IMG/VR virus record: IMGVR_UViG_3300005201_000352
Direction: 5' to 3' (one strand)
DNA from: an uncultured virus (IMG/VR IMGVR_UViG_3300005201_000352)
Taxonomy: Duplodnaviria > Heunggongvirae > Uroviricota > Caudoviricetes
DNA: 64,000 nucleotides
The position numbers and the translations under genes are program-made. Each line of letters starts with the position of its first letter. Positions within the stretch are counted from its first letter, which is position 1. Positions 22,392 to 39,909 of this stretch are shown here, piece by piece. The notes under the pieces are model-generated. The model was given only the letters and a program-made list of their open reading frames with translations, did no database searches and had not been told where the DNA came from.

Positions 22392-23585
22392 TTAACTGAA
22401 CGTCGGTAAAGTTACCTCGATAACCGAACCATAAGCTGTACCGCTTTCAACAACTGGAAGAACCCAGTTGTTGAAATTACCGCGTATTCTGTGCCACGCT
22501 CTATGCTCAGAGCTGAGACCCAATACATCACCTTGACCAAGTTCCATAGTCTCAGTGCGTTTGGTGAACCGATAGCCGCCAAATACATCAACTTTGACGT
22601 AAATATATACTTTGCCCTGCGGAACGCCCGGGTATGACAGCTTTTCTTTGCCATAGTCCAAATTGTGGTTAAGTCCGCACCCGTAAGGAATAATTCCGTC
22701 AATGGGAAGCGCGGCGGCAACCTGCTGGATACCACCGACACCCGCCAATGCTCCGTTCACGATTGGCAGAATATCGACTTGATCCATCGGGTTTACAAGT
22801 AAATAAATCTCGTGCCGAATGAGTCCGACTTCCCTATTGAGCGGCTTGTTAATCAATTTTAACGCTTTTCTGATACCTGCTTTTAAAGTGTTGTACAACT
22901 GGAGATCGTAAGTTGCTCCGGAAGCGTTTGCGGCCTGCTGATGTGAGGAGGTAAATGTCGTGCCCAAAATCGCGCCCAGCGAATCTTTATTCTTTTCGTC
23001 AGCCAGGATACGAGCCGCGCTTTCGATAATCTTCTCCGTCTTGTGGAAGGGGTTTAATACGAGTTGGCGTATTGTGGTCTTATCTCCAAACCCTCTTATC
23101 TTGAGAGTTACGGGAGTATCCACCGGCAGCGAGGATTTCATAAGCGGAACGGTATCACCTGAGCCTTCGATATCCTCTTCTTTGCCGACATACGGCAATA
23201 CATCGCGAAGATTGAAAGTTTCAGGCAGACTTTCGTCCACTACTTCCTTGAACAGTACAGGAGTATAATCCACATACTCGTCCGCTTGGCGCACGAGGTC
23301 GATTGTGTAAATTCCTGCAAGGGCTTTGATTGTTGCCATATCGTAGCCGGTCTCAGCGTTCAAGAAAGTTCTCGCCTTGTCTTCAAGTGCCTTTCTTTCT
23401 TGGAGGAGTTTCTCTCTCCCTGCGCTGTTCAGCCACTTCTCACCGACAACCTTGATCGTTTCACTATATGCTACAGCCGATTCAGTACTTGTCAGATTCT
23501 CCGAAGCCTTGCCATTATAAATGCGGATATTCCGCACCTTGCCGACAAGTTCTTTTCTCATGGTTTCTGCGTTTAACAGTTTCAT
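22392..23585 (-). CDS. Major capsid protein
   Basis: 397 aa, AAGGAG SD, after the scaffold and decoration genes, followed by a hairpin. Confidence 0.75.
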   Translation of the reverse strand: MKLLNAETMRKELVGKVRNIRIYNGKASENLTSTESAVAYSETIKVVGEKWLNSAGREKLLQERKALEDKARTFLNAETGYDMATIKALAGIYTIDLVRQADEYVDYTPVLFKEVVDESLPETFNLRDVLPYVGKEEDIEGSGDTVPLMKSSLPVDTPVTLKIRGFGDKTTIRQLVLNPFHKTEKIIESAARILADEKNKDSLGAILGTTFTSSHQQAANASGATYDLQLYNTLKAGIRKALKLINKPLNREVGLIRHEIYLLVNPMDQVDILPIVNGALAGVGGIQQVAAALPIDGIIPYGCGLNHNLDYGKEKLSYPGVPQGKVYIYVKVDVFGGYRFTKRTETMELGQGDVLGLSSEHRAWHRIRGNFNNWVLPVVESGTAYGSVIEVTLPTFS

Positions 23586-23597
23586 TCTTTTTTCTCC

Positions 23598-24084
23598 TTA
23601 TCTCGTAACAGCGATGTCGAAGGTGTCAGCACCAACGGCCACTACAGTTCCAAGCAACGTGTTGCTCGATGATGTAGCGGATAACGCTCCAGCAGACGTG
23701 ATATACACATCACCTCCAATTGCCGCCGCAGGCAGATCGACTTTAGCAGCCTGAAAAACCGCGATCTGTTTCCCAACGTCCACGCTCCCGGAAGCACCGA
23801 TTGCGGTATCATAGTCGGAAAACCCTACAAGGCTCCCGAAAACGCAAATCTCGCCCTTCGTTTTGGCTGCGGGGAAGGCGGCTACTTTGATANNNNNNNN
23901 NNNNNNNNNNNNNNNNNNNNNNNNNNNNNNNNNNNNNNNNNNNNNNNNNNNNNNNNNNNNNNNNNNNNNNNNNNNNNNNNNNNNNNNNNNNNNNNNNNNN
24001 NNNNNNNNNNNNNNNNNNNNNNNNNNNNNNNNNNNNTACTTTGATATGGTCAGAGACCGGTTTTTTACCAAATAATTTAGCCAT
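23598..24084 (-). CDS. Capsid decoration/cement protein (DUF2190-like), about 110 aa once the spurious gap is closed
   Basis: TACTTTGATA on both sides of the gap; merging gives MAKLFGKKPVSDHIKVAAFPAAK...GGDVYIT...NTLLGTVV. Confidence 0.65.
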
Positions 24085-24087
24085 TGA

Positions 24088-24686
24088 TTAAACCTCCCTG
24101 AAAGCATTTTCGACTTTCTTAATCAACGACCCGTCCTCTTTGGCCTGGACGTTGGTTGTGGGATCCGCTTGCTTTGACCTCAAAGAGATCATTATCTGAT
24201 CTTTCTTGAGTTCCTCTACGGAGTTTTTGAGCTTTGTGCCGCGTAAACCTTTGAGCTTATCCCGCGCGTACAGATACATGGGGTTGTCAACCTCTGTACC
24301 GTCCGCGTTCTTGAGTTTTTTGCCTCCGGCAAGTTCGTTTGCAGCAACTTCAACGACAGATTCGCCGACCTCTTCCAGTTGCTTGAGGGTTTCTTCCACT
24401 TTCTCGATGATTTCTTTCACCGGGGTTTCGGGGGGAAGTTCGAGAACTTCAAGAATGTCTTCTTTCAGTTCCTCTGCCTGTTCGTCCTCGTTCTTGCGAA
24501 GTTTATTCTCAAGACCGACGGCTGCGGCGATTTCTTCAAGCGTTATCGAGTTATTTGCAATAGCCGCTTTTAGAGCCGCGATAATTTCGTCTTTATTCAT
24601 ACCGTTTTTCTCCTTGGTATTTTTGGTTTTTTGCGCGATTGCGTTGAGAACCCGTCCGGCAAGCGCCTTGTCAGAAGTCGATTGCA
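24088..24686 (-). CDS. C-terminal (scaffold) part of the split protease-scaffold gene; internal start at 24600
   Basis: Acidic helical sequence; starts inside the att repeat (QSTS-DKAL); AAGGAG 9 nt before ATG 24600. Confidence 0.8.
24672..24686. repeat. Satellite att core, left copy CAGAAGTCGATTGCA
   Basis: Identical to 36407-36421. Confidence 0.95.
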
Positions 24687-25127
24687 CTATTTTTTATAAT
24701 TCCTTATGGGATATGGCTTTACGGTGTACCTATTATACGGTTTCTACAAATAACCCATAGAATAGGCATAAAAGCGGCATAAAATAGGCAGGGTAAGCCA
24801 GCCTTGCGGCAGGGCAAGCCCTCTTTGCCGTTGCCCCGGAATGGCGGGGCTTCTCGCGCGGCGGCGGCTCGCGGCATGGCAGGGAGCGATTGAACCTCAT
24901 GAAAGGGTCGGGCTGTTTATCAGATATAAACCAATACAACCTATACAACCCATACAATCTAGGCAAACACCCCGAATTTCGCGCAAGAAAGCCTCTTGGT
25001 GCGGTTTTGTGTCTAAATAAATAAAAGGGTAATTACAGATTATAAAACGTGATAGCGCGGCTTTAATGAGCAAATAAAGGCATTTTGAAATAACTCAGAG
25101 ATTAACGCTTTATAAAAATAAAAACCC

Positions 25128-25156
25128 TTGACAATTTGTTGTTTTTATACCACAAT
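25128..25156 (+). promoter_or_regulatory. Sigma70-like promoter of the TA operon
   Basis: TTGACA-17-CACAAT, ATG 6 nt downstream. Confidence 0.65.
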
Positions 25157-25162
25157 GTAATT

Positions 25163-25456
25163 ATGAAAATTAAAGAGGATGAGGCTTTTACAAAATGGTT
25201 TAAGAAACTGAGGGATGATCGAGCTAAGCATAAGATCAGGGCGCGGATTAGGCGGCTTAAAGAAGGCAACCCCGGAAACGTTGAGCCGGTAGGGGAAGGG
25301 GTATCAGAAATGAAAATTGATTATGGTCAAGGCTATAGGGTGTATTACTTGGATACAGGCAAAGAGATCATTATTTTGCTTTGCGGCGGTGATACAAAAA
25401 AGACACAACAGGCAGATATTGAAAATGCCAAAAAGATTGCCAGAGATTACAAATAG
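25163..25456 (+). CDS. RelE/ParE-family toxin (addiction module killer protein)
   Basis: FTKWFKKLRD..AKHKIRARIRRL..GNPG.VEPVGEGVSEMKIDYGQGYRVYY, LLCGGD. Confidence 0.92.
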   Translation: MKIKEDEAFTKWFKKLRDDRAKHKIRARIRRLKEGNPGNVEPVGEGVSEMKIDYGQGYRVYYLDTGKEIIILLCGGDTKKTQQADIENAKKIARDYK

Positions 25457-25464
25457 GGGGAATT

Positions 25465-25779
25465 ATGAAAACTAAGATTAACGAATTAAAAGATTGGGAC
25501 TTTGTTGAAGACATTAAAACTAAGGAAGATGTGATCGGTCTGTTAGAGGCAACTCTTGAATTAGCCATACAGGAAAATGATCCAGCGTTTTTATTTAAAG
25601 CAATTGGAGACATAGCAAAATCGGAAGGCATGGAACAACTGTCTAAAGAACTTAACCTTGATCGGTCTAGTTTATACCGTTCTTTTTCTCCAAAGGGAAA
25701 CCCGTCTTTTTTTACTGTTGCTAAGGTTTTAAATTATTTAGGATTACAACTAAGCGTGAAGCAAAAAGTACCAGCCTAG
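25465..25779 (+). CDS. HTH addiction module antidote (antitoxin)
   Basis: AIGDIAKSEGMEQLS...RSSLYRSFSPKGNPSFFTVAKVL. Confidence 0.92.
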   Translation: MKTKINELKDWDFVEDIKTKEDVIGLLEATLELAIQENDPAFLFKAIGDIAKSEGMEQLSKELNLDRSSLYRSFSPKGNPSFFTVAKVLNYLGLQLSVKQKVPA

Positions 25780-25796
25780 ACCGTTTCCAAAATGTC

Positions 25797-27056
25797 TTAA
25801 TATCTCCCGTGGAAAAATCCTCTTGCGTCATCGTCAAGAACTGTCATAACAGATTCAAGGTCTTCGGTAGCATACCGACACGCCGCGATAGCATCATCTT
25901 TGAACTTTACAGGTTCGTCTAACAGGTTGCCATCGCGATCTTCTCTCCACTTGTAAGAATTAACCTCTGAAACAAGTCCGGGGCAGGCAAGCGGATCAAT
26001 GTACCATGTCCCTCTGTTAAGCAATGAGATTTGTTCCTTTACGCTGTCCTTGCCCTTCTTCGCTCCTTCTATCCTGTACCCTTCCTGTTGCCATTGTTTA
26101 ATGCTCTTAGGCTCCGCGCTGTCCGCTATACATTTTTGTTTTTTACTTAGAATACCCTGATTTTCATTCTCAGCTATTATCTCATCGTTTGTCATGTGCC
26201 TGACATACAATTCACTGAATGAATATTTATCGCCGTCCTTTAACCCTATAAGTTCTATAGCGTTGTAATGGTTAAAGCCAAAATCTTGACCTGCTATTAT
26301 TTGATCAAAATCTTCCGGGCTATATGGACACGCTTGAATTTTTATGTTTCTAAAAACAAGGTTTCCCACGCTTCCCCATTTTCCCAAAGCGTAAATATCG
26401 TAATAAACCCTGTCTTGAAATTTCAACGCCTCTAATTTTTCTTTGTATTCACTGTCTAAAAATCTGTTGTCAATATATGTACTCTCATGGATTGTGGCTT
26501 TTTCTTTCTCTGTCTGGTTGTCAAAAAATCTTTTTTTTATCCAGTGGGTATCGCTTACGGGATTAAATAATAAGGTTATCTGAAATGGCACCTTTGCCTG
26601 TCCTCTTAACCTTAAATTCAACTGGTTAAATTCTTGCTCCGTGATCTCGGTCGCTTCTTCAATGAGTATGTCTGTCAATACTCCATTTTCAAACGTGATG
26701 GATTTTACTTTTTCAATATCATCTAACCCTAAATATTTGATCTGGTTGCCGTTGTGAATACAAGTCATAGTTCGGCTTGTTTTATTTTCACTTACGACTG
26801 GTTGTAGGTTCCACTGGTTTATAATTTTTCGTATTAACTGAATACAGCTAATACTAAGCGTTCTCTCTACCTTCCTGACAATAATATAATTATGCCCCGG
26901 CTCCGCTATGAATCGGTAAACGACCCGGCGATGTGCGTCTTCACTCTTGCCTGACCCTGCGCCTCCCTTGCAAATTATATAAGGTTTTCTGTCTTTCCAT
27001 AACGGTAAAAAATTATCATTGATCCACGCCGGGAGGGTTGAAAAATCAATCTCCAT
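25797..27056 (-). CDS. terL: Satellite terminase large subunit, PBSX family
   Basis: KGGAGSGKS, GLDDIEKVKS, IEEATE, FNP, STYIDN.FL, YALGKWG, GQDFGFN, ADSAEPKSI, DDAIAACRYA. Confidence 0.93.
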   Translation of the reverse strand: MEIDFSTLPAWINDNFLPLWKDRKPYIICKGGAGSGKSEDAHRRVVYRFIAEPGHNYIIVRKVERTLSISCIQLIRKIINQWNLQPVVSENKTSRTMTCIHNGNQIKYLGLDDIEKVKSITFENGVLTDILIEEATEITEQEFNQLNLRLRGQAKVPFQITLLFNPVSDTHWIKKRFFDNQTEKEKATIHESTYIDNRFLDSEYKEKLEALKFQDRVYYDIYALGKWGSVGNLVFRNIKIQACPYSPEDFDQIIAGQDFGFNHYNAIELIGLKDGDKYSFSELYVRHMTNDEIIAENENQGILSKKQKCIADSAEPKSIKQWQQEGYRIEGAKKGKDSVKEQISLLNRGTWYIDPLACPGLVSEVNSYKWREDRDGNLLDEPVKFKDDAIAACRYATEDLESVMTVLDDDARGFFHGRY

Positions 27057-27447
27057 CGGCGAACTCTTGCGGTAGCCCTATAGATATTTTCATATCGCCT
27101 TTCATTAACTGCTCTGTTTTATCTACCCACCCGATACATGGTTGTTTAAGTTTGAACTGTGCGAAGCTCGGCGGTATATCTCCTAACAGGGTATTTCTTT
27201 CAATGTAGTCTTCTTGTTTTTCGTGGATCCTCTGTATTAAATCAGAAAAATATTCGCCAAGCGGTTTGCTTTTAGCGTTTAATTTTGTGTCGTTAGCCCA
27301 TTCATAAATTCTCTGTTTAGCTATTTTGTGTTTAACACAAAATCCACAGACCGATGGATAGTTCTCTTTCTCAAGGTACTCTTCAAGTTCTGCTAAAAGC
27401 CTTAACCTTTCTTCTTGAGTATATTTTATCGGTTTCCCTACTTTCAA
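27046..27447 (-). CDS. terS: Satellite terminase small subunit (P22/Sf6 gp3-like)
   Basis: GKPIKY, PSVCGFC...IYEWA, AQFKLKQ..GWVDKTE; overlaps the terL start. Confidence 0.75.
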   Translation of the reverse strand: MKVGKPIKYTQEERLRLLAELEEYLEKENYPSVCGFCVKHKIAKQRIYEWANDTKLNAKSKPLGEYFSDLIQRIHEKQEDYIERNTLLGDIPPSFAQFKLKQPCIGWVDKTEQLMKGDMKISIGLPQEFADGD

Positions 27448-27559
27448 GATAACCTTCCCATAGTCCGCTTACCCTTAGAGAGAAGTTTAAAAATCCCGTT
27501 TTAAGCGTCTTGTCAGCCGTAGATAGCAGATTACCGCATACAGCCGAAACGCTCCAGTT

Positions 27560-27760
27560 TTACAAGACCCTTTTCTTTTCTTCCTCGGCGGTCAGCTTTG
27601 CAATGTACTCAATCGTGTTGAGATCGCCGTCTAACGCCCTGCCGATTAAACGCTGGCAGATACCTTCAAGATTTGTAACCCTTGAACCGTCCTCAAGTTC
27701 ACACTCGGCTTTATTAAGCTCGATTTTCATCTGTGCGGCGATCTCGGTCTTTAGGCTCAT
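27560..27760 (-). CDS. 66-aa protein resembling the core of the helper small terminase
   Basis: LEDGSRVTNLEGICQRLIGRALDGDLNTIEYI vs helper LENGSVEIISAKEAVVRKLINLAVAEGSFPAIKYL. Confidence 0.55.
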   Translation of the reverse strand: MSLKTEIAAQMKIELNKAECELEDGSRVTNLEGICQRLIGRALDGDLNTIEYIAKLTAEEEKKRVL

Positions 27761-27858
27761 GTGCTGCTCTCGGTTTTGCTTCCGCTACTGCCGCTCCCGC
27801 GCGACCAACCGCTCACCGGTCTGACTGACCCATCGGGTCTCCTGATAGTTCTATACAT
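27757..27858 (-). CDS. 33-aa R/G/S-rich peptide (not in the ORF track)
   Basis: AGGAGGG SD; MYRTIRRPDGSVRPVSGWSRGSGSSGSKTESST; ATGA overlap with the next gene. Confidence 0.6.
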   Translation of the reverse strand: MYRTIRRPDGSVRPVSGWSRGSGSSGSKTESST

Positions 27859-27883
27859 AATTTTACCCTCCTAAAAAATAATA

Positions 27884-28141
27884 TCATGGCTTTATTGCCC
27901 TTTCAAGGTCTTCAATCCTAATAAAAAAATCTTCAACAGGTTTTAACCCCATTTTATCCAACCAGTCATCTCTCTCTTTATTTGTATCAAACACCACTGA
28001 AAAAAAGTAACCTGAACACATCTCGTCTTTAAATTCCTGTTTACGTATATCGTCAAATTTAGCTACCTCTTTTTCTGATTCTTTCTCTAGCTCTTCAAGG
28101 GCTTCAACTCCCTTTTTTTCTTTTTGTAGTTTCCTTACCAT
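27884..28141 (-). CDS. Hypothetical protein coupled to the PP-loop gene
   Basis: 85 aa, YFFSVVFDTNKERDDWL; overlaps the upstream stop. Confidence 0.6.
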   Translation of the reverse strand: MVRKLQKEKKGVEALEELEKESEKEVAKFDDIRKQEFKDEMCSGYFFSVVFDTNKERDDWLDKMGLKPVEDFFIRIEDLERAIKP

Positions 28142-28902
28142 GTTTTACACATCTCCTTTTTCATTGCATATTTTCCAAACTGGGTGATTCTTTGCTTATG
28201 CCATTTTGTGTGAACCTTAAATCTTCTCAATCCCTGAGAGCCTATCAATGGGAACCAGTGACAGATCATTTTATAAGTTTCTGGACAATGCTCTTTTATT
28301 AAATTGATATTCCATGCTCTAGGTGATTCGAAACTTAACCCCCACAAACTATATTCAATAGGCAATAAACAATTATGTTTTTCAAGTATATCCTGTATGT
28401 CTTTCACTTGGAATGATGCAATAGGATAAAATTTGTTTCCATGAGAGCAACCGCATTTTGATAAATGCTGGTAACGCCTGATACCGTCCGTGTATCTTAA
28501 ACCTAAATGAAAAATAACATCTCCACCAACAGTGTCTGATAAAAATTTGTCAAACCGCTCTTTGGTGTGATCTTCTAAAACAGTGCCTATTCTGTTTCTG
28601 AATTTTTCCCTTGCCTTGACAGGATACTGATATAAGGCATTATCCAATTTTTCAGAAAATAATGTGCTGGGGAATTGATAGATTTTAACATTAAAATATT
28701 TCTCAAACCAGTCTATATAATTTTTAACCATAGGGAGGTCTTTAATAAAATAGTGGTAGACTAGAATGGGTTTAATTCCGTACTCTTTTAATCTTAAATA
28801 ACTGGCAACAGAATCGGCACCGCAAGAAAAATGAAGTATATTTGTCTTGTCTTTTAATGAACCAACTTTGCTCTGAAAGTCTCTCTCAATCTGTTCATTC
28901 AT
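28135..28902 (-). CDS. PAPS-reductase-like / PP-loop (adenine nucleotide alpha hydrolase) protein
   Basis: ILHFSCGADS PP-loop, GLRYTDGIRR, FYPIASF, LPIEYSLWGLSFE. Confidence 0.75.
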   Translation of the reverse strand: MNEQIERDFQSKVGSLKDKTNILHFSCGADSVASYLRLKEYGIKPILVYHYFIKDLPMVKNYIDWFEKYFNVKIYQFPSTLFSEKLDNALYQYPVKAREKFRNRIGTVLEDHTKERFDKFLSDTVGGDVIFHLGLRYTDGIRRYQHLSKCGCSHGNKFYPIASFQVKDIQDILEKHNCLLPIEYSLWGLSFESPRAWNINLIKEHCPETYKMICHWFPLIGSQGLRRFKVHTKWHKQRITQFGKYAMKKEMCKTW

Positions 28903-28908
28903 TATTAT

Positions 28909-28937
28909 ATTGTACCGCCTTTTATATATCTTGTCAA
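28909..28937 (-). promoter_or_regulatory. Sigma70-like promoter of the satellite packaging operon
   Basis: TTGACA-17-TACAAT, ATG 6 nt downstream. Confidence 0.7.
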
Positions 28938-29146
28938 GTGCAAACTTGCCCCTTTAAATCCCTCTGTAAAGAACATAACGCGCAACTGTCAATAATTACA
29001 TGATCATCATCGGTAACGCATTTTTTATTATCACATACAAAATAACATTTAATATGTTTCATTTTAGCATACCTTCTTGCACGATGGACAGTAGCAAATA
29101 CTTTATTACCTTTTCTATTTCTTATATCAAAAAAAATGTACATCAA
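28934..29146 (-). CDS. Hypothetical Cys-containing protein
   Basis: 70 aa, AGGGGG SD, co-oriented. Confidence 0.45.
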   Translation of the reverse strand: MMYIFFDIRNRKGNKVFATVHRARRYAKMKHIKCYFVCDNKKCVTDDDHVIIDSCALCSLQRDLKGQVCT

Positions 29147-29161
29147 AACCCCCTTTTAATC

Positions 29162-29671
29162 CTAATTGCAATATGGATCTCTGCCGGGAAAAATTGTGAT
29201 ACATTCATAGTAAAGAACACCATCGCAAACAAAATCACTGCCCGGGGGATTATTATTACGTCCCCCTAATATCTCCCCAAAACTCTTATAATAAGAACCA
29301 TCAGGATATACAAATTTATGATCCCGCTCTCTAGGGTTTATATATATAAACATTCCATAAAACGGATGACCCAATACATTAAATATTTCATTGACTATAT
29401 AATCCCTTACCGCAACCCTTACAGGTTCATTGGTAAAATACCCCGGCGCGTTGCCCGGTGTAATTTCGTTCAAATGTGCATGATCAAGCCCGGCTTTGAA
29501 CGAAGGACGCCACCCGGAATGTTTAGATAAATCTAACTCCGTAAATCCTGTTTGCGGCGCGTTTAGACGTACATAAACACGATAATTATCACCGAGGATT
29601 GTATATTCAAATTTTCTGAATTGTTCCCCCTCCATCTGTGAAAAATGTTGATCTAATTCTGATAATCTCAT
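29162..29671 (-). CDS. Hypothetical protein
   Basis: 169 aa, AGGAGG SD. Confidence 0.6.
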   Translation of the reverse strand: MRLSELDQHFSQMEGEQFRKFEYTILGDNYRVYVRLNAPQTGFTELDLSKHSGWRPSFKAGLDHAHLNEITPGNAPGYFTNEPVRVAVRDYIVNEIFNVLGHPFYGMFIYINPRERDHKFVYPDGSYYKSFGEILGGRNNNPPGSDFVCDGVLYYECITIFPGRDPYCN

Positions 29672-29845
29672 TCTCTCTCCTCCTGTTTCAATTGTTTATT
29701 TCCCCCTAACGGTATTTTGTGGGTTGTCTCAATGGTGTAGTCAAGCGTTTTTTTTCTCAGGCGATAAGAAAAATGTAATGCGACCGTATTCAACAGACGC
29801 AAATATAGCGGCTATCCATGCTTTCAGTTTTTCGTCAAGCTCCAA
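29668..29845 (-). pseudogene. Frameshifted paralogue of helper small gene 37765-37935
   Basis: GGAGG-7-TTG; MELDEKLKAWIAAIFASVEYGRITFFLSPEKK, then an A8 tract (29748-29755); with A7 it continues TLDYTIETTHK to an ATGA-coupled stop. Confidence 0.8.
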
Positions 29846-30380
29846 TTTTCCGCCTCCGTCTTAACGCCTGTTTGTGCTTTACTATGGCTATACCTGTCAT
29901 CGTGTAATCGGGATCGGTAAATCTCAATTCCAATTTCGTTAGCATTACTTGATCCGCTTTTGAAACTATGCCTAAATTTTCAAGTGTGCAATTATTTTTA
30001 TTGCCGTCAAGAAAAATAACGATTTGCCCCGGAGGTACTTTCCCGTTGACCTGCTCCCATAAATACGTGTGTTTGTTTCTCCATTTGCCGCTTTCGTCTT
30101 TTATTTTAATATAGCCATTCTTGTTTACGCGCTCAGTAAAAACCGGGTAAGGATCGTATTTCCCCCGTCCCTTAATAATTTTGTAATACCGCCTTAATGA
30201 TTTTACGCTTTGCCTTGTCATGTTAAAATTAAACCGCGTGTTTAACATTTCGCATAACTCGGTATCTGAATAATCGGCGGCCTTTGCCTTTATGAAGTCT
30301 ATAACTTCCTGGCTGTAGGTTTTTTCCCTGCCTTTCCTGCATATTCGCGGATCGTTTTTTTCAAACTTACTCATCGTCAA
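29835..30380 (-). CDS. HNH endonuclease (HNH_3-like)
   Basis: GYIKIK, KHTYLWEQVNGKVP, FLDGNKNNCTLENL. Confidence 0.85.
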   Translation of the reverse strand: MTMSKFEKNDPRICRKGREKTYSQEVIDFIKAKAADYSDTELCEMLNTRFNFNMTRQSVKSLRRYYKIIKGRGKYDPYPVFTERVNKNGYIKIKDESGKWRNKHTYLWEQVNGKVPPGQIVIFLDGNKNNCTLENLGIVSKADQVMLTKLELRFTDPDYTMTGIAIVKHKQALRRRRKIGA

Positions 30381-30675
30381 TGTCCCGGTTTAAAAGTGAT
30401 TTTTTCTTGCCTATTTTTTCCGGCGGCGGCAATGGTTTTTTAATGACTTCCGGGCTGTTTGGCAGTAACGGCAGATCGCCCATTGAAGGAAGCCCGTAAA
30501 TCTCCGCGCATTTTGCGATCAATGCCCCGTTTTTAACCGCTATTATTGCAAGGCCGCTAAACGCCTCGGATCGCCGTATCTCTTGATCCAGTTCATCGCC
30601 TTTCAGATCGTCATCGTTCAGTTTTTCCATAAGCTCAAATAAATGATTCTGTAAGTCCGTCAGTTTGTTTTTCAT
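30367..30675 (-). CDS. HNH-associated small helical protein (paralogue 1)
   Basis: MKNKLTDLQNHLFELMEKLNDDDLKGDELDQEIRR. Confidence 0.75.
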   Translation of the reverse strand: MKNKLTDLQNHLFELMEKLNDDDLKGDELDQEIRRSEAFSGLAIIAVKNGALIAKCAEIYGLPSMGDLPLLPNSPEVIKKPLPPPEKIGKKKSLLNRDIDDE

Positions 30676-31036
30676 GCCTTCCCCCTGTTAAATAATTCCA
30701 TGTCATTCATGGAGTAGCCCTCATCACGTAACGCATTGTCTAGCTCTGTCCAGTCTTTAGCAACCACGCACAACGCGCCGTTTTTCTCGGCTTCGTCTAA
30801 AAACTCTTTTTGCTCTTTGGACAGCCTCCGCCCTTCGGAGCTTTACATTCGACAAATAACGCCCTGCCATCAGGCAGCACCCCTATAATGTCCGATGATC
30901 CCACTTTGCCAAAGTGCATGAAATGACCGCTTGCCATTCTTACGCACCCGGTAGAATTTCGCCAATGGTAGATTTGCCTTGCCCTCAGATAGCTTAAACA
31001 CCCTTCAAGTACCATGCTCTCAGGCGTTTTTTTCAT
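30672..31036 (-). pseudogene. VRR-NUC nuclease with a 1-nt deletion near 30828
   Basis: GSSDIIG, FVECKAPKG; the expected RLSKEQKEFLDEAEKNGALCVVA continues in another frame to an ATGA-coupled stop. Confidence 0.8.
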
Positions 31037-31087
31037 TGTGCCATACCCTCCCTAAAAATTAAAAATAAAAAAAAAAAAGCCAATCGA

Positions 31088-31113
31088 CCGTTTGTGCTGA
31101 AAAGCACAAACGG
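31088..31113. repeat. Perfect hairpin CCGTTTGTGCT-GAAA-AGCACAAACGG
   Basis: 11-bp stem downstream of the rep gene, near an A-rich tract. Confidence 0.8.
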
Positions 31114-31236
31114 AATGTTTATTTTTATGTGCTATGCACATTTCTTATGTGTCTTATAAATTCGCCTCGCTCCGCTCGCTATAACCACCACCACTTACAA
31201 ACCACCACTAATATAATGTGTCTTTATAATGTGTAT

Positions 31237-31809
31237 TTATATGTGCTGGTTTCCTGCACAATCATNNNNNNNNNNNNNNNNNNNNNNNNNNNNNNNNNNN
31301 NNNNNNNNNNNNNNNNNNNNNNNNNNNNNNNNNNNNNNNNNNNNNNNNNNNNNNNNNNNNNNNNNNNNNNNNNNNNNNNNNNNNNNNNNNNNNNNNNNNN
31401 NNNNNNNNNNNNNNNNNNNNNNNNNNNNNNNNNNNNNNNNNNNNNNNNNNNNNNNNNNNNNNNNNNNNNNNNNNNNNNNNNNNNNNNNNNNNNNNNNNNN
31501 NNNNTGTGTTGGTTTCCTGCACAATACCGGGTCTTCGTATACCGTATATTTGGTTTCCCGCCTCTTGTTTCCCCCCTGCTCTTTTACCACATACCCCGCT
31601 TTTATTAGTTCGTTTAACGCCGCCTCCGTTGCATACCGACCGCTTGCGCTACGTGCGAATAAATCCCTTAAATGCAACTCCCATTGATCCGGTAATGACA
31701 GGCAATAAGCCAATAGACCTTTTGCCGCCCAAGACAATTCACAGTCTTGTATTGGCTCATTGTCCATTTGGAAAAATTCATCTTTGCGGTTCTTGCGCTT
31801 GATTATCAT
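31237..31809 (-). CDS. Satellite replication initiator (winged-helix), 3' end in an N gap
   Basis: LSWAAKGLLAYCLSLPDQW...GRYATEAALNELIKAGYV. Confidence 0.75.
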   Translation of the reverse strand: MIIKRKNRKDEFFQMDNEPIQDCELSWAAKGLLAYCLSLPDQWELHLRDLFARSASGRYATEAALNELIKAGYVVKEQGGNKRRETKYTVYEDPVLCRKPTXXXXXXXXXXXXXXXXXXXXXXXXXXXXXXXXXXXXXXXXXXXXXXXXXXXXXXXXXXXXXXXXXXXXXXXXXXXXXXXXXDCAGNQHI

Positions 31810-31815
31810 ACCGGT

Positions 31816-32067
31816 TTATGCCATGCTGTTTAGAATTTTATCCGCCGCTTCCCCTGCATCGTGATCCGATAACGCCCTGTTTCTGAAAGCGTAAGCCTCA
31901 AGATCGCATCGCCTGAAATACATCTTTTTTCCGCCCGGCTTGTATGCCGTTAGTTTTTTGGCATGAACCAACTGGTAAATAAAGCCCGGTTTAAGTTTCA
32001 AAAATGCCGCCGCTTCGTCTACGCCAAGCGGTTCTTCATGAATCTGGTTCTCAATCTGGTCTTTCAC
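31816..32067 (-). CDS. Excisionase-like HTH_17 protein
   Basis: LGVDEAAAFLKLKPGFIYQLV...YKPGGKKMYFRRCDL. Confidence 0.85.
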   Translation of the reverse strand: MKDQIENQIHEEPLGVDEAAAFLKLKPGFIYQLVHAKKLTAYKPGGKKMYFRRCDLEAYAFRNRALSDHDAGEAADKILNSMA

Positions 32068-32085
32068 ATAATCCTCCTATGTTTA

Positions 32086-32388
32086 TTATTCTTTTAATGC
32101 AACTACAAGAGACGAATTCAGACGCGATTTTAACGCCCCGGAAGGACGGAAGAAAATAACGCGCTTCTTCGGAACATTCACGCGCTCCATAGTTTTTGGG
32201 TTGTGCCGGGTTTGGGCTTTTCGTTCCCTTTGCGTAAATGTACCAAAGCCCCGAAGCTCTATAGTCTGTCCCTCGATGAGCGCGGCGGCCATGCTGTCAA
32301 TAACCAGCGCCGTAATTTTTTGCGCTTCTTTAATCCCTGCCTTGATCAGTATTTTGTTAATACTGGACCGGGTGAATTTGTCTTTCAT
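32086..32388 (-). CDS. HU/IHF-family DNA-bending protein
   Basis: IELRGFGTF..RERKA..RHNPKTMERVNVP....FRPSGALK. Confidence 0.92.
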   Translation of the reverse strand: MKDKFTRSSINKILIKAGIKEAQKITALVIDSMAAALIEGQTIELRGFGTFTQRERKAQTRHNPKTMERVNVPKKRVIFFRPSGALKSRLNSSLVVALKE

Positions 32389-32594
32389 TTTTCCGGCTTG
32401 CTCCCTATCAAAATTATGCTTGCGTTCAACTGGTAACGCGCCTTTGGATTGTCCGGGTTGATAATTTTTCCGTTTCCGTAAAATCCGCAACTTCCAGTAG
32501 AAAAGTTTTTTGGCATGGCGTGGATTGTTCCCCATTGCTTGCCGTTGTGCATTATTTCAAGCGTCAAGAATTCCGGGGCTTTTTCGTCTGTCAT
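32385..32594 (-). CDS. Small conserved-looking hypothetical protein
   Basis: PKNFSTGSCGFYGNGK...YQ......IGSK; coupled stops and starts. Confidence 0.55.
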   Translation of the reverse strand: MTDEKAPEFLTLEIMHNGKQWGTIHAMPKNFSTGSCGFYGNGKIINPDNPKARYQLNASIILIGSKPEK

Positions 32595-32821
32595 GGTTTT
32601 ACCTCCATTGTTGATTCGCGTATGTTTATATATACGCTCTCGCCTTCCATGTTCTTGTATTCAAGGTTGTTTCCCTTGTTATAGCCGCCTATTGATCCCC
32701 ATGCGTCAACCAGCGAAAAGCCCTCGGCGTTTAACAGTGCATCCAGTTTTTGGGTGATAGGGGACATAACATCAATGACTGATTTATTAACAGTTCCCTG
32801 TTCGTTTTTCTCTTGGTTCAT
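32591..32821 (-). CDS. Hypothetical protein
   Basis: 76 aa, ATGA-coupled on both sides. Confidence 0.5.
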   Translation of the reverse strand: MNQEKNEQGTVNKSVIDVMSPITQKLDALLNAEGFSLVDAWGSIGGYNKGNNLEYKNMEGESVYINIRESTMEVKP

Positions 32822-33054
32822 GCTTGCACCTTCCTGTAAATGCTTCTGTGTTTGTTTATACAGCTAACTTTTCTAGTGCCGTATGAATTCCGATAGTCCC
32901 TCATTCGGCGCATTGTTACGTCCGGCAGTGTCCATTTTGCCACCTCGTAGACTTTTTTAACCATGTTGTATAACTGCCACCCGGTGAATTCCGCGCCCAT
33001 CGGCAGACCGTCAATGACGGATCGTACCGCCTCAGTTAAATTCTTGTACTTCAT
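32818..33054 (-). CDS. Small basic, possibly winged-helix protein
   Basis: 78 aa, FTGWQL...DVTMRRMRDYR; coupled. Confidence 0.5.
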   Translation of the reverse strand: MKYKNLTEAVRSVIDGLPMGAEFTGWQLYNMVKKVYEVAKWTLPDVTMRRMRDYRNSYGTRKVSCINKHRSIYRKVQA

Positions 33055-33788
33055 TTTACACCTCCCATAAATATTTTCTTCTTATCCTTATATCTGAGAT
33101 CGCCTTTTACCTCTTTCTTTATTCTGTTGCTCATTGCTAGAGTAAGACGCGCCATTATTAAAAATGTTTTAGTAGTTTCTATATCATCATATTTACAACC
33201 CATCTTGCTCATCATTATCAATTCAGAATTTTTAACACATAATAAATTGTCAAGATTAAAATCCTGTTTGTTACCATTTGCAAATAGTATCAAATATCCA
33301 TTTGGAACCTTGCCGTTTTTCTGCTCCCATAAATATCTATGCTTTGTAACATAATCCTTTCTTGGGTTTCCTGTATTACTAACCCTTATATATATTTCTA
33401 CACCCTTTTTTACTTCCCTTCCTATTTTGCTTTTGTATATTTTTATTTTATATTTGCTTGCATAAACCCCAATAGTATCTTTACTTTTATTGGTTTTATA
33501 GTATTCATTAAATTTTTTTGTTATATCATCAATAGTGTTATTTATTGCCAGTTGTCTTATATATTCAATTTTATCTGGTGTGAAAAAATAATTTTTTCTT
33601 TTACACATTATACCAACTTTTATATTTCTATATTTTGCATGATCTCTTATTTGATCCAGTTTTAAGACAGTATTAAACTGTTTATTAAATGCGTCTGTTA
33701 AGCCTCTATAATCATAGAGATTTGAATTTGCTTTTAACCAATTCAACATATCCTGTGAAAATAAAAACCTAACAGACGTTTTTTTCAC
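33051..33788 (-). CDS. HNH endonuclease (HNH_3-like) with duplicated N-terminal helical repeat
   Basis: KHRYLWEQKNGKVP, FANGNKQDFNLDNL; AT-rich. Confidence 0.85.
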   Translation of the reverse strand: MKKTSVRFLFSQDMLNWLKANSNLYDYRGLTDAFNKQFNTVLKLDQIRDHAKYRNIKVGIMCKRKNYFFTPDKIEYIRQLAINNTIDDITKKFNEYYKTNKSKDTIGVYASKYKIKIYKSKIGREVKKGVEIYIRVSNTGNPRKDYVTKHRYLWEQKNGKVPNGYLILFANGNKQDFNLDNLLCVKNSELIMMSKMGCKYDDIETTKTFLIMARLTLAMSNRIKKEVKGDLRYKDKKKIFMGGVK

Positions 33789-34087
33789 ACCTTGCCTCTT
33801 CTATTCCCTGGGATAGCAAGCAGGCTCTTTCTTTCTTTGTCCAAAATAAATGTTTCTGCTTCACTCTTTGGAAGTAATGGAACCTCATCATTTACAGGTA
33901 TTCCATAGAGGGTATCAACACACTTGATCATCAATGCGCCGTTTGCAACCGCTGTTTTTGCAAGTTCATTTATTGAGGCCGCTCTCTCTATCTCTTCTTT
34001 GAGTGCTTCCCCTTTTAAGTTATCATCATTTATTTTTTCAATCATTGAAAATAAATGATTCTGTAAATCTGATAATCTGTTTTTCAT
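33785..34087 (-). CDS. HNH-associated small helical protein (paralogue 2)
   Basis: MKNRLSDLQNHLFSMIEKINDDNLKGEALKEEIER. Confidence 0.75.
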   Translation of the reverse strand: MKNRLSDLQNHLFSMIEKINDDNLKGEALKEEIERAASINELAKTAVANGALMIKCVDTLYGIPVNDEVPLLPKSEAETFILDKERKSLLAIPGNRRGKV

Positions 34088-34302
34088 ATTTCACACCCCC
34101 CGTTAATCATTTCCAATCTTGCCTTTGATGTTTCAATGAAATGGATTGCTAACCCGTTAAATAACAGGGCATTCTGCAAAACTGCTTCTAGTTCCGCTCC
34201 CTGTAACCTGTTGTCTTCTAATCTGTGGATGTAATCCCAAAGACCCCTCTGTAAGTCTGCCAGTCTGATAGTGTTTGTGTTCAATAGTTCCCTACTGTTC
34301 AT
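34084..34302 (-). CDS. Diverged paralogue 3 of the same family
   Basis: RLADLQRGLWDYIHRLEDNRLQGAELE; GGAGG SD. Confidence 0.6.
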   Translation of the reverse strand: MNSRELLNTNTIRLADLQRGLWDYIHRLEDNRLQGAELEAVLQNALLFNGLAIHFIETSKARLEMINGGCEI

Positions 34303-34366
34303 ACCACCCTCCTGTGGTTGCCTTAGCAACCTGTTAATTTATTTAAGGCTCAAGCCTTATAATATA

Positions 34367-34516
34367 ATTATGCCCCTAGTAGGTGCATTTTGTCAATAGA
34401 TATAATAAAAAAAAATCAAAAAAAATAAAGATTTTTTCTGGTTCTGCCTTACATCTGTATAGTAAAATGCCCCTAGTAGTGGTATTTATTGACTTTTTAT
34501 AGAGCTATGGTATATT
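34367..34516. promoter_or_regulatory. Divergent promoters with two operator-like repeats
   Basis: Leftward TTGACA-18-CATAAT; rightward TTGACT-16-TATATT; ATGCCCCTAGTAG at 34370 and 34467. Confidence 0.65.
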
Positions 34517-34522
34517 AAGGGT

Positions 34523-34792
34523 ATGGGAAACAAGACCGATAATAAAAGTATGAAGGTAGAGCAAGGTGAATATTTTACCGTTGCCGATATGTCTAAAGAG
34601 CTTAATGAGTCTTTAGAAACAATTAAATCACGTATTAAGCGATTAGGTAAAAAGCCCCTTGCAAGAGATGCCCTCTACGAAAAATCGGTATTGGATGCTC
34701 TGAGAAATACGCCGGGTAAGGGTCGCCCCAAAAAAGCCCCGGAAAAACCCGTTGCTAAAAAAACACCCGCCGCTAAAAAGACCAAGAAATAA
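34523..34792 (+). CDS. HTH DNA-binding protein, candidate satellite repressor
   Basis: YFTVADMSKELNESLETIKSRIKR, GRPKK and a basic tail; divergent from the main operon. Confidence 0.6.
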   Translation: MGNKTDNKSMKVEQGEYFTVADMSKELNESLETIKSRIKRLGKKPLARDALYEKSVLDALRNTPGKGRPKKAPEKPVAKKTPAAKKTKK

Positions 34793-34833
34793 ATACTTAT
34801 AAAACATATAAAGTTTTATGCCGATATAAAAGC

Positions 34834-35064
34834 ATGAAGAAACTTATTGATAGACAAAACCGCCTATTTGAAATGTTAGAAAAAATTACGGATGATAATC
34901 TAACAGGCGAAGCACTGGATCAGGAAATCAAGCGGGTTAGAAAATTGGTTCAAGCAGAAAAAAAAGAAATTGCCAAAGATAGTAAAGTACATAATGCAAT
35001 AAAACCCCAAACAACCACCGATAAAAAACCGCCCCGGAAAAAACAAGGCAAGGTTAAAAAATGA
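34834..35064 (+). CDS. Truncated paralogue 4 of the HNH-associated family with a basic tail
   Basis: KLIDRQNRLFEMLEKITDDNLTGEALDQEIKR. Confidence 0.65.
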   Translation: MKKLIDRQNRLFEMLEKITDDNLTGEALDQEIKRVRKLVQAEKKEIAKDSKVHNAIKPQTTTDKKPPRKKQGKVKK

Positions 35065-35186
35065 CGGGAGAATTCGCCGCTCTCCAAAAAAAATATTTAG
35101 AAAAAATAGAGGAATACGCCGCGAAACGGTCTATAAGCATTGAACAGGCAAGGGCGGAATTAAGCGCGGCGGGAATTAACCTGTAA
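35061..35186 (+). CDS. 41-aa hypothetical peptide
   Basis: ATGA-coupled; MTGEFAALQKKYLEKIEEYAAKRSISIEQARAELSAAGINL. Confidence 0.4.
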   Translation: MTGEFAALQKKYLEKIEEYAAKRSISIEQARAELSAAGINL

Positions 35187-35195
35187 GCCCCGTAC

Positions 35196-36242
35196 TCAAT
35201 TTACTTTTAGCTCAGGCAATGCGTTGACCGCTTCCCTCTTCATTTTGTCGGTCGCTTTGGCGTAGACTTGCGTTGTCTTTACGTCCGTGTGTCCCATTAG
35301 TTTAGAAAGCGTGTAAATATCTACTCCGTTTTCAAGAGACATAACCGCGAAGGTATGCCGCGCCGTGTGCCAAGAAGCAATTTTTTTTATACCGGCTGTT
35401 TTACAAATATCTTTTATAGTCTTGTTATTCCATCGGCTTATCGTTGGGAATATTTTGTCGGCGTGGTTATGGATTTTCCCATCGTTTATTAGCTTCCATG
35501 CCGTATCATTTAACGGAATGTAAACTATATTTTTTGTTTTTGTTTGTTTCATAATTAGCTGTAACGGGTTATATTGAATATGTCCCCATTCAAGAGACCT
35601 TAAATCTGATATTCTTAATCCGGTATTGCACCCGAATAAAAAAGCCCGTCTAACCGTTTCGACCGTTTTATATTTTGTTTTCATCAATGCTATACGTTGC
35701 AGTTCATCGGCATTTAAGAATATTTTGTTTGGATCGTTTCGTTTTATCTTTTTTATTCCAAGAGTTGGATCCGTTGCTATAAGGTGTTCCCGCATTGCCA
35801 ATTTTAGCGCGTGGCGGATTTGCGCCTCATAGGTTGATGCGGTTGTCGGTTTAACACAGTTGGTTGTTAAATATTCCTGATATTTTATAAGCCATGCGGT
35901 TGTTACCTGCTTTAGCTGGATAACCGCGCCGCCCGGAAAGTTCTTTAAATAATGCAGTGAACTTGTTATAATATTTTGTACTGCCGGGGCTCCTTTGGCT
36001 TTTATTTTTTCCAAGTAGGAATAAAGACTGATATTGCCGCCGACCGGATCGGTTATTCCCCATGCGCTGGTTAAGATTTGCAATTCTCTTTTTGCCCGGC
36101 AAATTTCCGCAACCTTTAGAATTTCCTTGTTTGTTTCTTTGTCGGTCGATAACGAAATTTTAAGGGCTTCCCATTTTCTTGCTCCGTTGTGATAAATGTC
36201 CAAGTATAGCCGCCTGTTTTTCGTGCGGATTTTTACGCTCAT
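35196..36242 (-). CDS. int: Tyrosine integrase of the satellite
   Basis: Arm-binding N-terminus LYLDIYHNG; GLRISD, KTK, HTARHTF, LMGH, TQVY catalytic set. Confidence 0.95.
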   Translation of the reverse strand: MSVKIRTKNRRLYLDIYHNGARKWEALKISLSTDKETNKEILKVAEICRAKRELQILTSAWGITDPVGGNISLYSYLEKIKAKGAPAVQNIITSSLHYLKNFPGGAVIQLKQVTTAWLIKYQEYLTTNCVKPTTASTYEAQIRHALKLAMREHLIATDPTLGIKKIKRNDPNKIFLNADELQRIALMKTKYKTVETVRRAFLFGCNTGLRISDLRSLEWGHIQYNPLQLIMKQTKTKNIVYIPLNDTAWKLINDGKIHNHADKIFPTISRWNNKTIKDICKTAGIKKIASWHTARHTFAVMSLENGVDIYTLSKLMGHTDVKTTQVYAKATDKMKREAVNALPELKVN

Positions 36243-36406
36243 AAAAGTTCCTTATGCCATATAGTTTTTTGTTTCTACAAATAGGTATTGAGAAACAACA
36301 AAAAACATAAAGCAATATAAAATATAATCAAATAAACTACTTATATTATAATACATAATAATACAATGTAAACTAAAATAAAATATAATAAAAAATAATT
36401 CGATAG

Positions 36407-36421
36407 CAGAAGTCGATTGCA
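36407..36421. repeat. Satellite att core, right copy CAGAAGTCGATTGCA
   Basis: Identical to 24672-24686; 165 bp from the integrase start. Confidence 0.95.
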
Positions 36422-37142
36422 GGTTTACCGCCGCCTTCCGAAACACTTTGCCATTTTTTACAAGCTCTTCACTTTCGCTTTCCATATCGACAGCGCCCTT
36501 TTCAATGAGCGCCATGATTGCCGCTTCATCAGCAGAATTGCCGACTTTTACTTCCATCGCACCTTGCGGGACAAGATCGTTTCTTGGTCTGCCAAGTTCT
36601 TTGGTAATGTAAACTTTGCCGTCGTTTCCCCTAACAGGTTCTGCTTCGGTAACGATTGATAATTCAGGAATACCGGCTTTAAACGACCTTATAAGAGCAG
36701 CATTTGAACCGTTCCAGCCCTCCGGCGGAACCATAATGCGGAAGTAACACACTCCTTCTTTCTCGCTCTGCATTTGGAGTTCACCGCCAATAGTGTAAAA
36801 ATCATCGCCTTGAGTCTCGTGTCCGTCTTTGCTTCCCGGTATTGGATACTGTTTCAGATAATCCAGTAAAGACTGGAAATATTCATGTGTGTATATCCCA
36901 CCTGCTCCCTCAGTGGGGACTTGGACGGCTTCCACAAACTCATACGCGCCTTCGGCTTTGATTGCGTCAAGAGCTTTCTGCGGTATGAGTACCGGGATTT
37001 TTTCCGGCACTGGAAGATCGGGCGTTGCTTTATTTTTCAGGCGTAGACGCGTTGACTGGTTATACAGTTTCCGTACTACCACCGCCGCCTCCGTTTGCCG
37101 CTTCTGCTTCTTTGATCTTGATAGCGGCGATAAGATCAGCAT
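36407..37142 (-). CDS. N-terminal (prohead protease) part of the split protease-scaffold gene; start uncertain
   Basis: YTHEYF...PGSKDGH, ELSIV, NDLVPQGA resemble prohead protease His/Ser/acid motifs; reads ...VNLQSTS into att, then AT-rich nonsense. Confidence 0.75.
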
Positions 37143-37738: not shown

Positions 37739-37768
37739 ATTTTAAGGCTAAATTCTAATTTCTGTCAA
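37739..37768 (-). promoter_or_regulatory. Candidate promoter just upstream of the terminator
   Basis: TTGACA-18-TAAAAT. Confidence 0.5.
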
Positions 37769-39902: not shown

Positions 39903-39909
39903 CGCTCTT

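Follow-up and report, generated by a model that had tools for sequence, protein, structure and literature searches.

The 64-kb stretch of DNA analysed here (the window; 64,000 nucleotides of the uncultured Caudoviricetes record IMG/VR IMGVR_UViG_3300005201_000352) contains a prophage, hereafter the helper, in which a late gene for a prohead protease/scaffold-like protein is divided by an 11.7-kb element (24687-36406) that is co-oriented with the helper late operon. The element is probably a satellite resembling the phage-inducible chromosomal islands (PICIs), or a very recent derivative of one, placed by its own tyrosine recombinase in the protease/scaffold linker of a prophage in a Treponema-like spirochaete. 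The insertion and its exact ends, the recreation of a normal open reading frame (ORF) on excision at the repeat core, a second helper/element pair and a helper-type tail on the large terminase (TerL) of the element are direct observations. A satellite in a helper late gene had been proposed in a preliminary description of the window; it remains the best reading of the insertion with ORF restoration, and it is strengthened by the second helper/element pair at the same site and by the TerL tail.

The ends of the element are marked by the 15-mer CAGAAGTCGATTGCA, which has exactly two + strand copies in the window, at 24672-24686 and 36407-36421, while the number expected from 100 shuffles was 0. 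Each copy, taken on the coding (minus) strand, is tg caa tcg act tct g, and the two share one phase, as the preliminary description had stated. Translation of the upstream half of the gene ends with ...KAAVNLQSTS (VFRKAAVNLQSTS), and the downstream half, in the same phase, opens at its core copy as ...QSTSDKALAGRVLNAIAQ... and reads QSTSDKALAGRVLN..., such that deletion in silico of the insert and one repeat yields the joined peptide ...KAAVNLQSTSDKALAGRVLN.... The predicted attB junction after excision is AACCTGCAATCGACTTCTGACAAG, and the empty site would read ...GTAAACCTGCAATCGACTTCTGACAAGGCG....

An uninterrupted form of the gene is found in an IMG/VR contig (L001) as a single unbroken ORF of 416 aa, which reads ...AVNLQSASDKALAGRVLN... 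across the junction and is 79% identical to the upstream and 59% identical to the downstream half. In a three-way DNA alignment, the left flank of the attL core (the 15-bp identity block at 36407..36421) and the right flank of the attR core (the corresponding block at 24672..24686) adjoin in L001 around TGCAATCTGCTTCTG, so that the window ends and L001 display the classic attL/attR/attB pattern. A search with the intact protein recovered 72 homologues at E<=1e-5, mostly of 400-447 aa. The strict junction pattern was matched by 63 of these, seven read through the junction in a diverged form, two lacked the linker but kept a single ORF, and none was split at the insertion point, which indicates that the insertion is real. 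The exact predicted peptide, AAVNLQSTSDKALAGRVLN, is present in three of the 72 (P0146, P0158 and P0189). The rejoining of the two halves by excision, as originally suggested, and the existence of uninterrupted homologues in related phages are thus borne out, and these sequence comparisons support the site-specific integration, into one of the helper late genes, of an element whose excision would restore the ORF. The att-site linker is naturally absent from the protease/scaffold-like homologues P0185 and P0186; phages with a protein of this type would escape integration there and be immune to it. The N-terminal half as query against genome contigs gave 81 pattern matches, of which none was confirmed.

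The upstream half of the gene (36408..37142, minus strand) contains the whole protease domain, and the downstream half (24088..24687, minus strand), which is charged, scaffold-like and helical in the predicted model, has a GTG pseudo-start at the core edge. The chimeric upstream ORF continues for 55 codons into the AT-rich insert, to 36252, and its stop lies 7 nt before the int ATG; the sequence AAGGA occurs between this stop and the int ATG (within 36240-36254). Because the corresponding chimeric ORF of a related locus, L050, terminates right after the junction, this close coupling of the ORF to int may be due to chance. There is no terminator-like site between 36421 and the int start, so helper late transcription could enter int; two such sites are found downstream of int.

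The assignment of the interrupted gene as a fusion of protease and scaffold-like domains, also made in the preliminary description, is supported by fold prediction and gene position. In the predicted model of an intact homologue, the N-terminal domain is closest in a fold search to the T4 gp21 and herpesvirus prohead proteases, consistent with a protease of the HK97/T4 gp21/herpes assemblin kind, while the C-terminal half is helical and scaffold-like, and the protease domain is joined to the scaffold-like domain by a linker helix that holds the att site. The fold-match score is moderate, with two methods and the gene position in agreement, and the fold search is the sole lead, in that the intact protein had no match in Pfam, PHROGs or PDB sequences. 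H89, S143 and D170 (L001 numbering) are invariant across 47 sequences and are candidate catalytic residues. The gene is preceded by those for a TerS-like protein (DUF5681), TerL, the portal, an HNH endonuclease and an SPP1-gp7-like minor head protein, and followed by the gene for the probable major capsid protein, ahead of which L001 shows a homologue of head-decoration proteins.

The surrounding phage is a siphovirus-like prophage, in which 3.4-22 kb holds the genes for tail, tape measure and endolysin, 22-43 kb those for head and packaging, and 43-63 kb an early region that includes ParB-methylase, Rep, SSB and Gam genes; all long genes of this region are on the minus strand. Its TerL (41338..42825, minus strand; Terminase_6N/6C) is directly followed by the portal gene (39910..41337, minus strand), which was identified by a protein-atlas feature match of 0.98 to portal clusters (Portal/Phage_portal_3 clusters made up 25 of 30 atlas matches) and by a weak match to Pfam Phage_portal_3 (E 0.062). 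The probable major capsid protein (22392..23585, minus strand) is assigned by position only; it has no family match and is 65% identical to the L001 ORF that follows the head-decoration homologue. It has no match among named phages, which leaves the helper without a named relative. Between the portal and minor head genes lies the HNH endonuclease gene (39369-39938; phrog_3377), a 45%-identical counterpart of which occurs within the L050 element. The host is probably a Treponema-like spirochaete, as had been surmised, because relatives of the integrase (Int) of the element are named Treponema sp. or Spirochaet* metagenome-assembled genomes (MAGs) and because the left end of the prophage has a chromosomal-type flank, a Bmp/PnrA-like lipoprotein gene.

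The association between helper and element is not confined to the window. A search with Int recovered 753 homologues at E<=1e-20, of which those with names come from Treponema sp. MAGs, and four metagenome loci (L047-L050) encode integrases with 61-64% identity to it. One of them, L050, is a second, diverged helper/element pair at the same site. Its helper resembles that of the window (TerL 75%, portal 70%, minor head protein 63% and N-terminal half of the target protein 81% identity), and its element, which begins directly after ...KAAVN, has an Int with 61% identity and small genes in common at 35-88%; the left junction is covered by a continuous 76% DNA alignment with the window, and the contig ends 10.2 kb into the element. 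A 210-bp stretch of the L050 element (12040-12249) is held in common, at 74%, with an early gene of the window helper (57626-57835), a sign of gene exchange between helper and element lineages.

Other relatives lie in other settings. L049 carries, in order, TerS(DUF5681)-TerL, two reverse ORFs, right-end-like and then left-end-like sequence, and Int, with a different core, an attP order that suggests a circle or tandem. The flanks of L047 look chromosomal. L103 (a Treponema MAG) and L104 (a Spirochaetia bacterium), with Int identities of 46-49%, have the order Int-HTH_17-helicase-VRR_NUC-PAPS-like-85aa beside housekeeping genes. Both of these contigs end ~0.2-0.6 kb past the 85-aa gene, just ahead of the expected terminase, which suggests a repeat common to another phage in those genomes. 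Embedding in phages was considered for the integrases of 45-49% identity and was rejected, the flanks examined being chromosomal genes. Finally, the 12,341-bp IMG/VR contig L155 has an exact 99-bp terminal overlap, indicating a 12.2-kb circle; it encodes Int (38%), HTH_17, a replisome organiser, PAPS_reduct, two ParB-like proteins, Mom, a TerS-like ORF and a TerL that is 46% identical to the helper TerL, with no capsid or portal match, and L065 is of the same type. Judging from the gene content of L103/L104, L049 and L155, small integrase elements with a terminase and without structural genes recur in this host group. Single-sequence scans of viral contigs with the Int, PAPS-like and TerS-like proteins revealed no relatives.

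The TerL of the element (25797..27056, minus strand) is full length and belongs to the Terminase_3 family (Pfam E 3.7e-46), a different family from that of the helper TerL. A DNA comparison of element and helper revealed a 34-bp match at the 3' ends of both TerL genes: the element TerL ends with ...TVLDDDARGFFHGRY (encoded at 25800..25841, minus strand) and the helper TerL with ...SMIDDIARGFFHGRG (..IDDIARGFFHGRG at 41341-41379), the tail in common being ARGFFHGR. Outside this tail (10/14 residues identical, E 4e-4), BLASTP shows no significant similarity of the two TerLs, and RGFFHGR occurs in six frames in the two TerL tails only. In the element, the last residue of the tail directly precedes the stop codon, and the protein is full length and otherwise foreign. 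Eighteen relatives of the element TerL in IMG/VR, at 64-73% identity, lack a helper-type tail without exception, and 10 of them end with ...LDV(I/L), ...LDLC or ...LDAL at the point where the extra residues of the element TerL start; the full-length ones (L002, L003, L005 and L018) are of 404-415 aa. Because the annotated relatives belong to ordinary PAPS-ParB-TerS-TerL-portal-minor-head modules, the terminase module of the element derives from a complete phage lineage unrelated to the helper terminase. One relative of the element TerL, at 10001-11467 of L007, diverges past residue 393 and is 95 residues longer (a 488-aa ORF), unlike the other relatives.

Among 120 homologues of the helper TerL (P0198-P0317), the last 10-15 residues define discrete classes (..FFHGRG, ..ELYKW/SLYTW, ..PLMGV, ..SSRIVY and ..YEGGN..YR) that do not track overall identity. 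An aromatic-aromatic-x-G tail is present in seven of the 120, all in the closest group (72-75% identity), and P0198 is 93% identical to the helper TerL yet has a different tail. This variety among close homologues suggests that tail swapping may be general. Several of these homologues are 615-829 aa long and contain the intein-type Pfam domains PF14528 and PF05204. The TerL of the L049 element has no BLASTP similarity to the helper TerL and ends with ...ESRFFFGS.

In model phages the C-terminal region of TerL is the portal-binding region. By analogy, we infer that the tail of the element TerL is a grafted portal-docking label. A broader proposal, to which we would give not quite even weight, is that spirochaete satellites have come to be embedded in helpers independently of the helper-embedded PICIs (HE-PICIs) and take over helper proheads by replacing the motor, with the last ~12 residues of the helper TerL grafted onto a complete terminase of a foreign family. 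If this is true, TerL C-terminal tails would be exchangeable "portal address labels" exploited by satellites. A literature search on satellites and large terminases, judged from titles, turned up nothing on such a graft. The tail finding is the more useful part of this work: it yields a specific hypothesis, open to experiment, on what fits a foreign packaging motor to a portal, and it offers a natural experiment on the residues that specify TerL-portal pairing.

The remaining gene content of the element is PICI-like in layout, with an inward-facing Int, HTH_17, HNH_3 cassettes and late genes last; Int, HTH_17, Rep, the TerS-like protein and TerL all have their genes on the minus strand, which is also that of the helper late operon. 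The tyrosine integrase (35196..36242, minus strand; Pfam Phage_integrase, Phage_int_SAM_5 and Arm-DNA-bind_5) occupies the upstream end and is aimed inward. The motif ATTTGTAGAAA, a candidate arm site or P_int operator, has only two copies in the window, one in each end of the element (36272..36282 in the left and 24741..24751 in the right, both on the minus strand), and is conserved upstream of int in L047-L050. Beyond int, two small opposite-strand genes (34523..35064, plus strand; 89 aa and 76 aa) would form the repressor side of a divergent switch; the 89-aa protein has weak HTH matches and, in the L050 element, two counterparts at 56-64% identity. The adjoining AT-rich control region (34330..34522) contains promoter-like sites facing each other, TTGACA-18-CATAAT (34396-34367, minus strand) and TTGACT-16-TATATT (34489-34516, plus strand), which are consensus matches only. 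Small ORFs come next.

A cassette of a phrog_2044-like small protein and an HNH_3 endonuclease (family D1) is duplicated in the element, at 33051..34087 and 29835..30675 (both minus strand), with repeat pairs at 30518-30675 versus 33930-34087 and 30034-30074 versus 33304-33344; two copies also occur in the L050 element. It looks like a mobile or domain-shuffling module, by comparison with the "Bro zone" of PICIs. Between the two copies lie an HU/IHF-type DNA-binding protein gene (32086..32535, minus strand; Pfam Bac_DNA_binding, E 2.3e-20) and a candidate gene for an excisionase/AlpA-like protein (31816..32067, minus strand; Pfam HTH_17, E 1.2e-10; phrog_66 excisionase), the latter conserved in L048, L049, L050, L099, L103 and L104. 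The next gene, for a replication initiator (31237..31815, minus strand), is broken by a run of Ns (31266-31504), the only one of four such runs in the window that falls within the element. The N-terminal 101 aa of this Rep match phrog_4707/428/270 (replication initiation protein and DnaD-like loader) and have no similarity to the L104 helicase or the L050 DUF6291 protein. Direct repeats of 21 bp (31242-31262 and 31505-31525), which are 95% alike and iteron-like, flank the N run, and the hidden stretch of the gene may hold iterons. No primase or SSB family match was found in the element, part of the Rep gene being behind the N run. The VRR-NUC nuclease gene (30675..31036, minus strand; VRR_NUC in L103) encodes 121 aa in L050 and L103; here it is frameshifted at ~30820-30840, giving 79 aa and an out-of-frame C-terminal part, which reflects either a real pseudogene or an assembly error.

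Toward the late end, a 169-aa protein (m169) had no usable protein-atlas match. It is joined there by a PAPS-reductase-like protein (255 aa; phrog_424/2302) and an 85-aa protein (27884..28902, minus strand), a pair conserved in the element family (68-72% and 49-69% identity in L103/L104) with a promoter-like consensus match ahead of it (28937-28909). The TerS-like gene (27046..27447, minus strand) is directly upstream of, and overlaps, TerL; its matches are weak (GP3_package E 9.5e-5, under the Pfam cut-off; phrog_606 E 2.7e-4). At the right end, a HigB/Gp49-like toxin and HI1420-type antidote pair (25136..25779, plus strand) is convergent with TerL and was identified by Pfam Gp49 and dnstrm_HI1420 and by phrog_3445 (toxin). 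The preliminary description had listed Int, Xis, Rep, HU, a toxin-antitoxin (TA) pair, TerS and TerL: Int, HTH_17 (Xis/AlpA-like), HU, TA and TerL are clear, Rep stands by its PHROG matches, and TerS is weak, so that the "complete second motor" claimed there consists of a clear, full-length TerL with a TerS-like gene below cut-off. A PICI in the SatelliteFinder sense of de Sousa et al. 2023 has Int, a regulator (AlpA/MerR/Stl), pri-rep and terS, lacks tail and holin genes and usually has no further structural ones. Of these marks Int, HTH_17 and a repressor-like switch are present in the element, terS is weak and Rep is not a pri-rep match, and terL is present as well. The claimed lack of capsid, portal and tail genes holds, in that no capsid, portal, connector or tail family was matched by any of 23 element ORFs, the unassigned ones all being <=169 aa. 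An Rfam search of 24000-37200 at E<=0.1 likewise returned nothing, and in particular no C4/isrK-type immunity RNA as in some HE-PICIs.

The element contains two short traces of helper-like DNA. One (27503..27553, minus strand) is a non-coding relic of ~70 bp whose sequence, to either side of the core, is similar to that of the target gene around an unoccupied attB (blastn 81% over 52 bp; local score 31 versus 12.9 +/- 1.3, maximum 18, in 200 shuffles). It lies between the TerS-like gene and a doubtful plus-strand ORF, contains stop codons and matches L001 more closely than it does the helper of the window, and it may be a remnant of late-gene capture or a secondary site. The other (29741..29860, minus strand) is the decayed counterpart of a late ORF of the helper (37765-37935; 56 aa), in which CTG has replaced ATG and an A run contains a frameshift; a homologue of the helper ORF is present in L001. 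General mimicry of helper proteins by the element was rejected, as tblastn of 24 element proteins against helper DNA gave no match at E<=1e-3. What survives of the "several helper mimics" suggested earlier is the TerL tail and these two decayed relics.

We propose that, with the element in place, the helper would make at best a protease domain cut from its C-terminal half, and no proper proheads. After induction, helper late transcription would read into int, and Int and the HTH_17 protein would excise the element, thereby repairing the helper gene. The element would then replicate from its Rep/iteron module, and its own TerS-like/TerL pair would recognise element DNA and dock on the helper portal via the borrowed tail. 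Element DNA would be packaged into helper-built heads, probably as headful multimers since no capsid-size gene was seen. The statements of the preliminary description that the helper is unable to mature heads before excision, and that helper induction is tied to satellite release, are firmer than the sequence supports.

Several points weigh against this scheme. Excision, replication and packaging of the element are steps that we infer, and the binding of the tail to the portal is argued from other phages. The frameshift in the VRR-NUC gene and the pseudogenic state of both helper-like relics are signs of decay, and a helicase present in L103, L104, L099 and L049 is absent from the element. The closest relatives of the element TerL reside in ordinary packaging modules with portal and head genes, and deletions in a temperate phage would leave much the same picture. 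In addition, TerS is identified weakly, L050, L103 and L104 end ahead of the place of TerS/TerL, and a complete terminase-only late module is found in the window only, plus the more distant L155 and L049. The same decay, the missing helicase, the full-phage ancestry of the module from the PAPS-like gene to TerL (portal and head genes next to it in relatives) and the presumed nature of excision would also fit a dead composite, that is, a decaying temperate-phage remnant or worn-out island that no longer excises or is packaged and has inactivated the prophage. We regard this as unlikely, because the ORFs for Int, HTH_17, the TerS-like protein, TerL and the TA pair are unbroken, neither att core has a mismatch, comparable small elements likewise have no structural genes, and the helper-type tail reaches precisely to the stop of a foreign full-length TerL. 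Moreover, the L050 element, itself diverged, is found at this site in a helper that has diverged too, so the association of helper and element has persisted through much divergence.

Site-specific excision also rebuilds an interrupted gene, at a defined time, in the gene-interrupting prophage switches of active lysogeny (skin, SPbeta and the Listeria comK phage). The element might by analogy be a regulatory lock on the prophage head gene, or, with its TA pair and two HNH_3 nucleases, an anti-phage island, its terminase genes being cargo. Here, however, it is a gene of a different phage that is interrupted, and the insert has the look of a parasite of that phage; a lock would require neither TerS/TerL nor a Rep/iteron module, the TerL tail points to the use of helper heads, and the helper-embedded elements in the published account discussed below are satellites, all of which makes a lock or defence role improbable. 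It is more improbable still that two molecules were joined artificially at a common 15-mer or across the internal N run. The element does span that run, and the record resembles a metagenome-type assembly, but both junctions are in continuous sequence whose flanks match one uninterrupted gene elsewhere, the homologous left junction recurs in the independent assembly of L050, genes of this one element family are found to either side of the N run, arranged as in L050, L103 and L104, and the 21-bp repeats flank the run. A PICI-like satellite, or a very recent derivative of one, thus remains our preferred interpretation.

Satellites of the Staphylococcus aureus pathogenicity island (SaPI)/PICI type pair their own TerS with the TerL of the helper. 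The element resembles them in that it would redirect packaging specificity to satellite DNA in helper heads, and differs in that it brings a whole heterologous terminase, which appears adapted to the helper at the TerL C-terminus. The capsid-forming PICIs (cfPICIs), as described by de Sousa et al. 2023 (PMC10085698), have terL as a marker, together with capsid, portal and head-tail adaptor/connector genes, and steal only tails. The element is like the cfPICIs described there in having terL as well as terS, and unlike them in that its 23 ORFs have no capsid, portal or connector family match.

The closest parallel is with the HE-PICIs of Enterobacterales, for which Tommasini, Mageeney and Williams 2023 (PMC10111431) report 491 satellites at 14 sites in nine lambda-type late genes, including a cognate of the protease/scaffold gene (C:CLP_protease:110). 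Excision after helper induction is reported there for the founding member, 11capE of E. coli NRG857c. We located 11capE in NC_017634 (L157), where a split capsid gene is accompanied by Int, AlpA, primase and SSB, own capsid and decoration genes, and reverse defence genes, a layout parallel to that of the window. The element shares with the HE-PICIs, so far as they are characterised in that account, a size of ~11 kb, a position inside a prophage late gene with key genes co-oriented, the predicted restoration of that gene on excision, a terminal Int aimed inward, an HTH_17/AlpA-type gene, HNH_3-containing variable genes, late-type genes last, and reverse-oriented accessory/defence genes at the far end. 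Each also has a co-oriented motif pair flanking the attP centre, 81 bp upstream and 132 bp downstream in the HE-PICIs described and ~67/137 bp here, but the sequences differ (TGTATTGC versus ATTTGTAGAAA).

The two are nevertheless distinct in lineage and content. The window Int is only 20% identical over 220 aa to that of 11capE (pairwise E 4e-6) and has Arm-DNA-bind_5/SAM_5 domains in place of Arm-DNA-bind_3/SAM_3, so that pairwise identity and N-terminal domains both place it outside the single HE-PICI integrase clade. HTH_17 lies ~4 kb from int, behind the divergent switch, whereas it adjoins int in the HE-PICIs described (the distance is 0.6-0.9 kb in L048, L099, L103 and L104). A winged-helix Rep initiator with iteron-like repeats takes the place of their primase/SSB/DUF5906 zone, and the late zone is limited to a TerS-like gene and a TerL gene, a foreign-family terminase that bears the helper-type tail. 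The probable host is a spirochaete rather than a member of the Enterobacterales, and the main text of PMC10111431 does not mention "spirochaet" or "Treponema". Full-text searching of the literature, judged partly by titles, turned up no described phage satellite of spirochaetes.

The "distinct satellite type" of the preliminary description is too strong a term, because helper-embedded satellites in prophage late genes have already been published (PMC10111431), as that description itself partly allowed. With that concept in print, the element is, on sequence grounds, an independent variant representing a new lineage. It merits attention for an integrase of independent lineage, a probable spirochaete host, a late module limited to terminase genes and, most of all, the helper-like tail of its TerL, which is new here. 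The element would also be a candidate phage satellite in spirochaetes, and because helper-embedded satellites have so far come from one integrase clade in Enterobacterales, an independent case in Treponema-like spirochaetes, with an unrelated integrase and a target gene of equivalent type, would show that the locking of a helper head gene is a convergent strategy.

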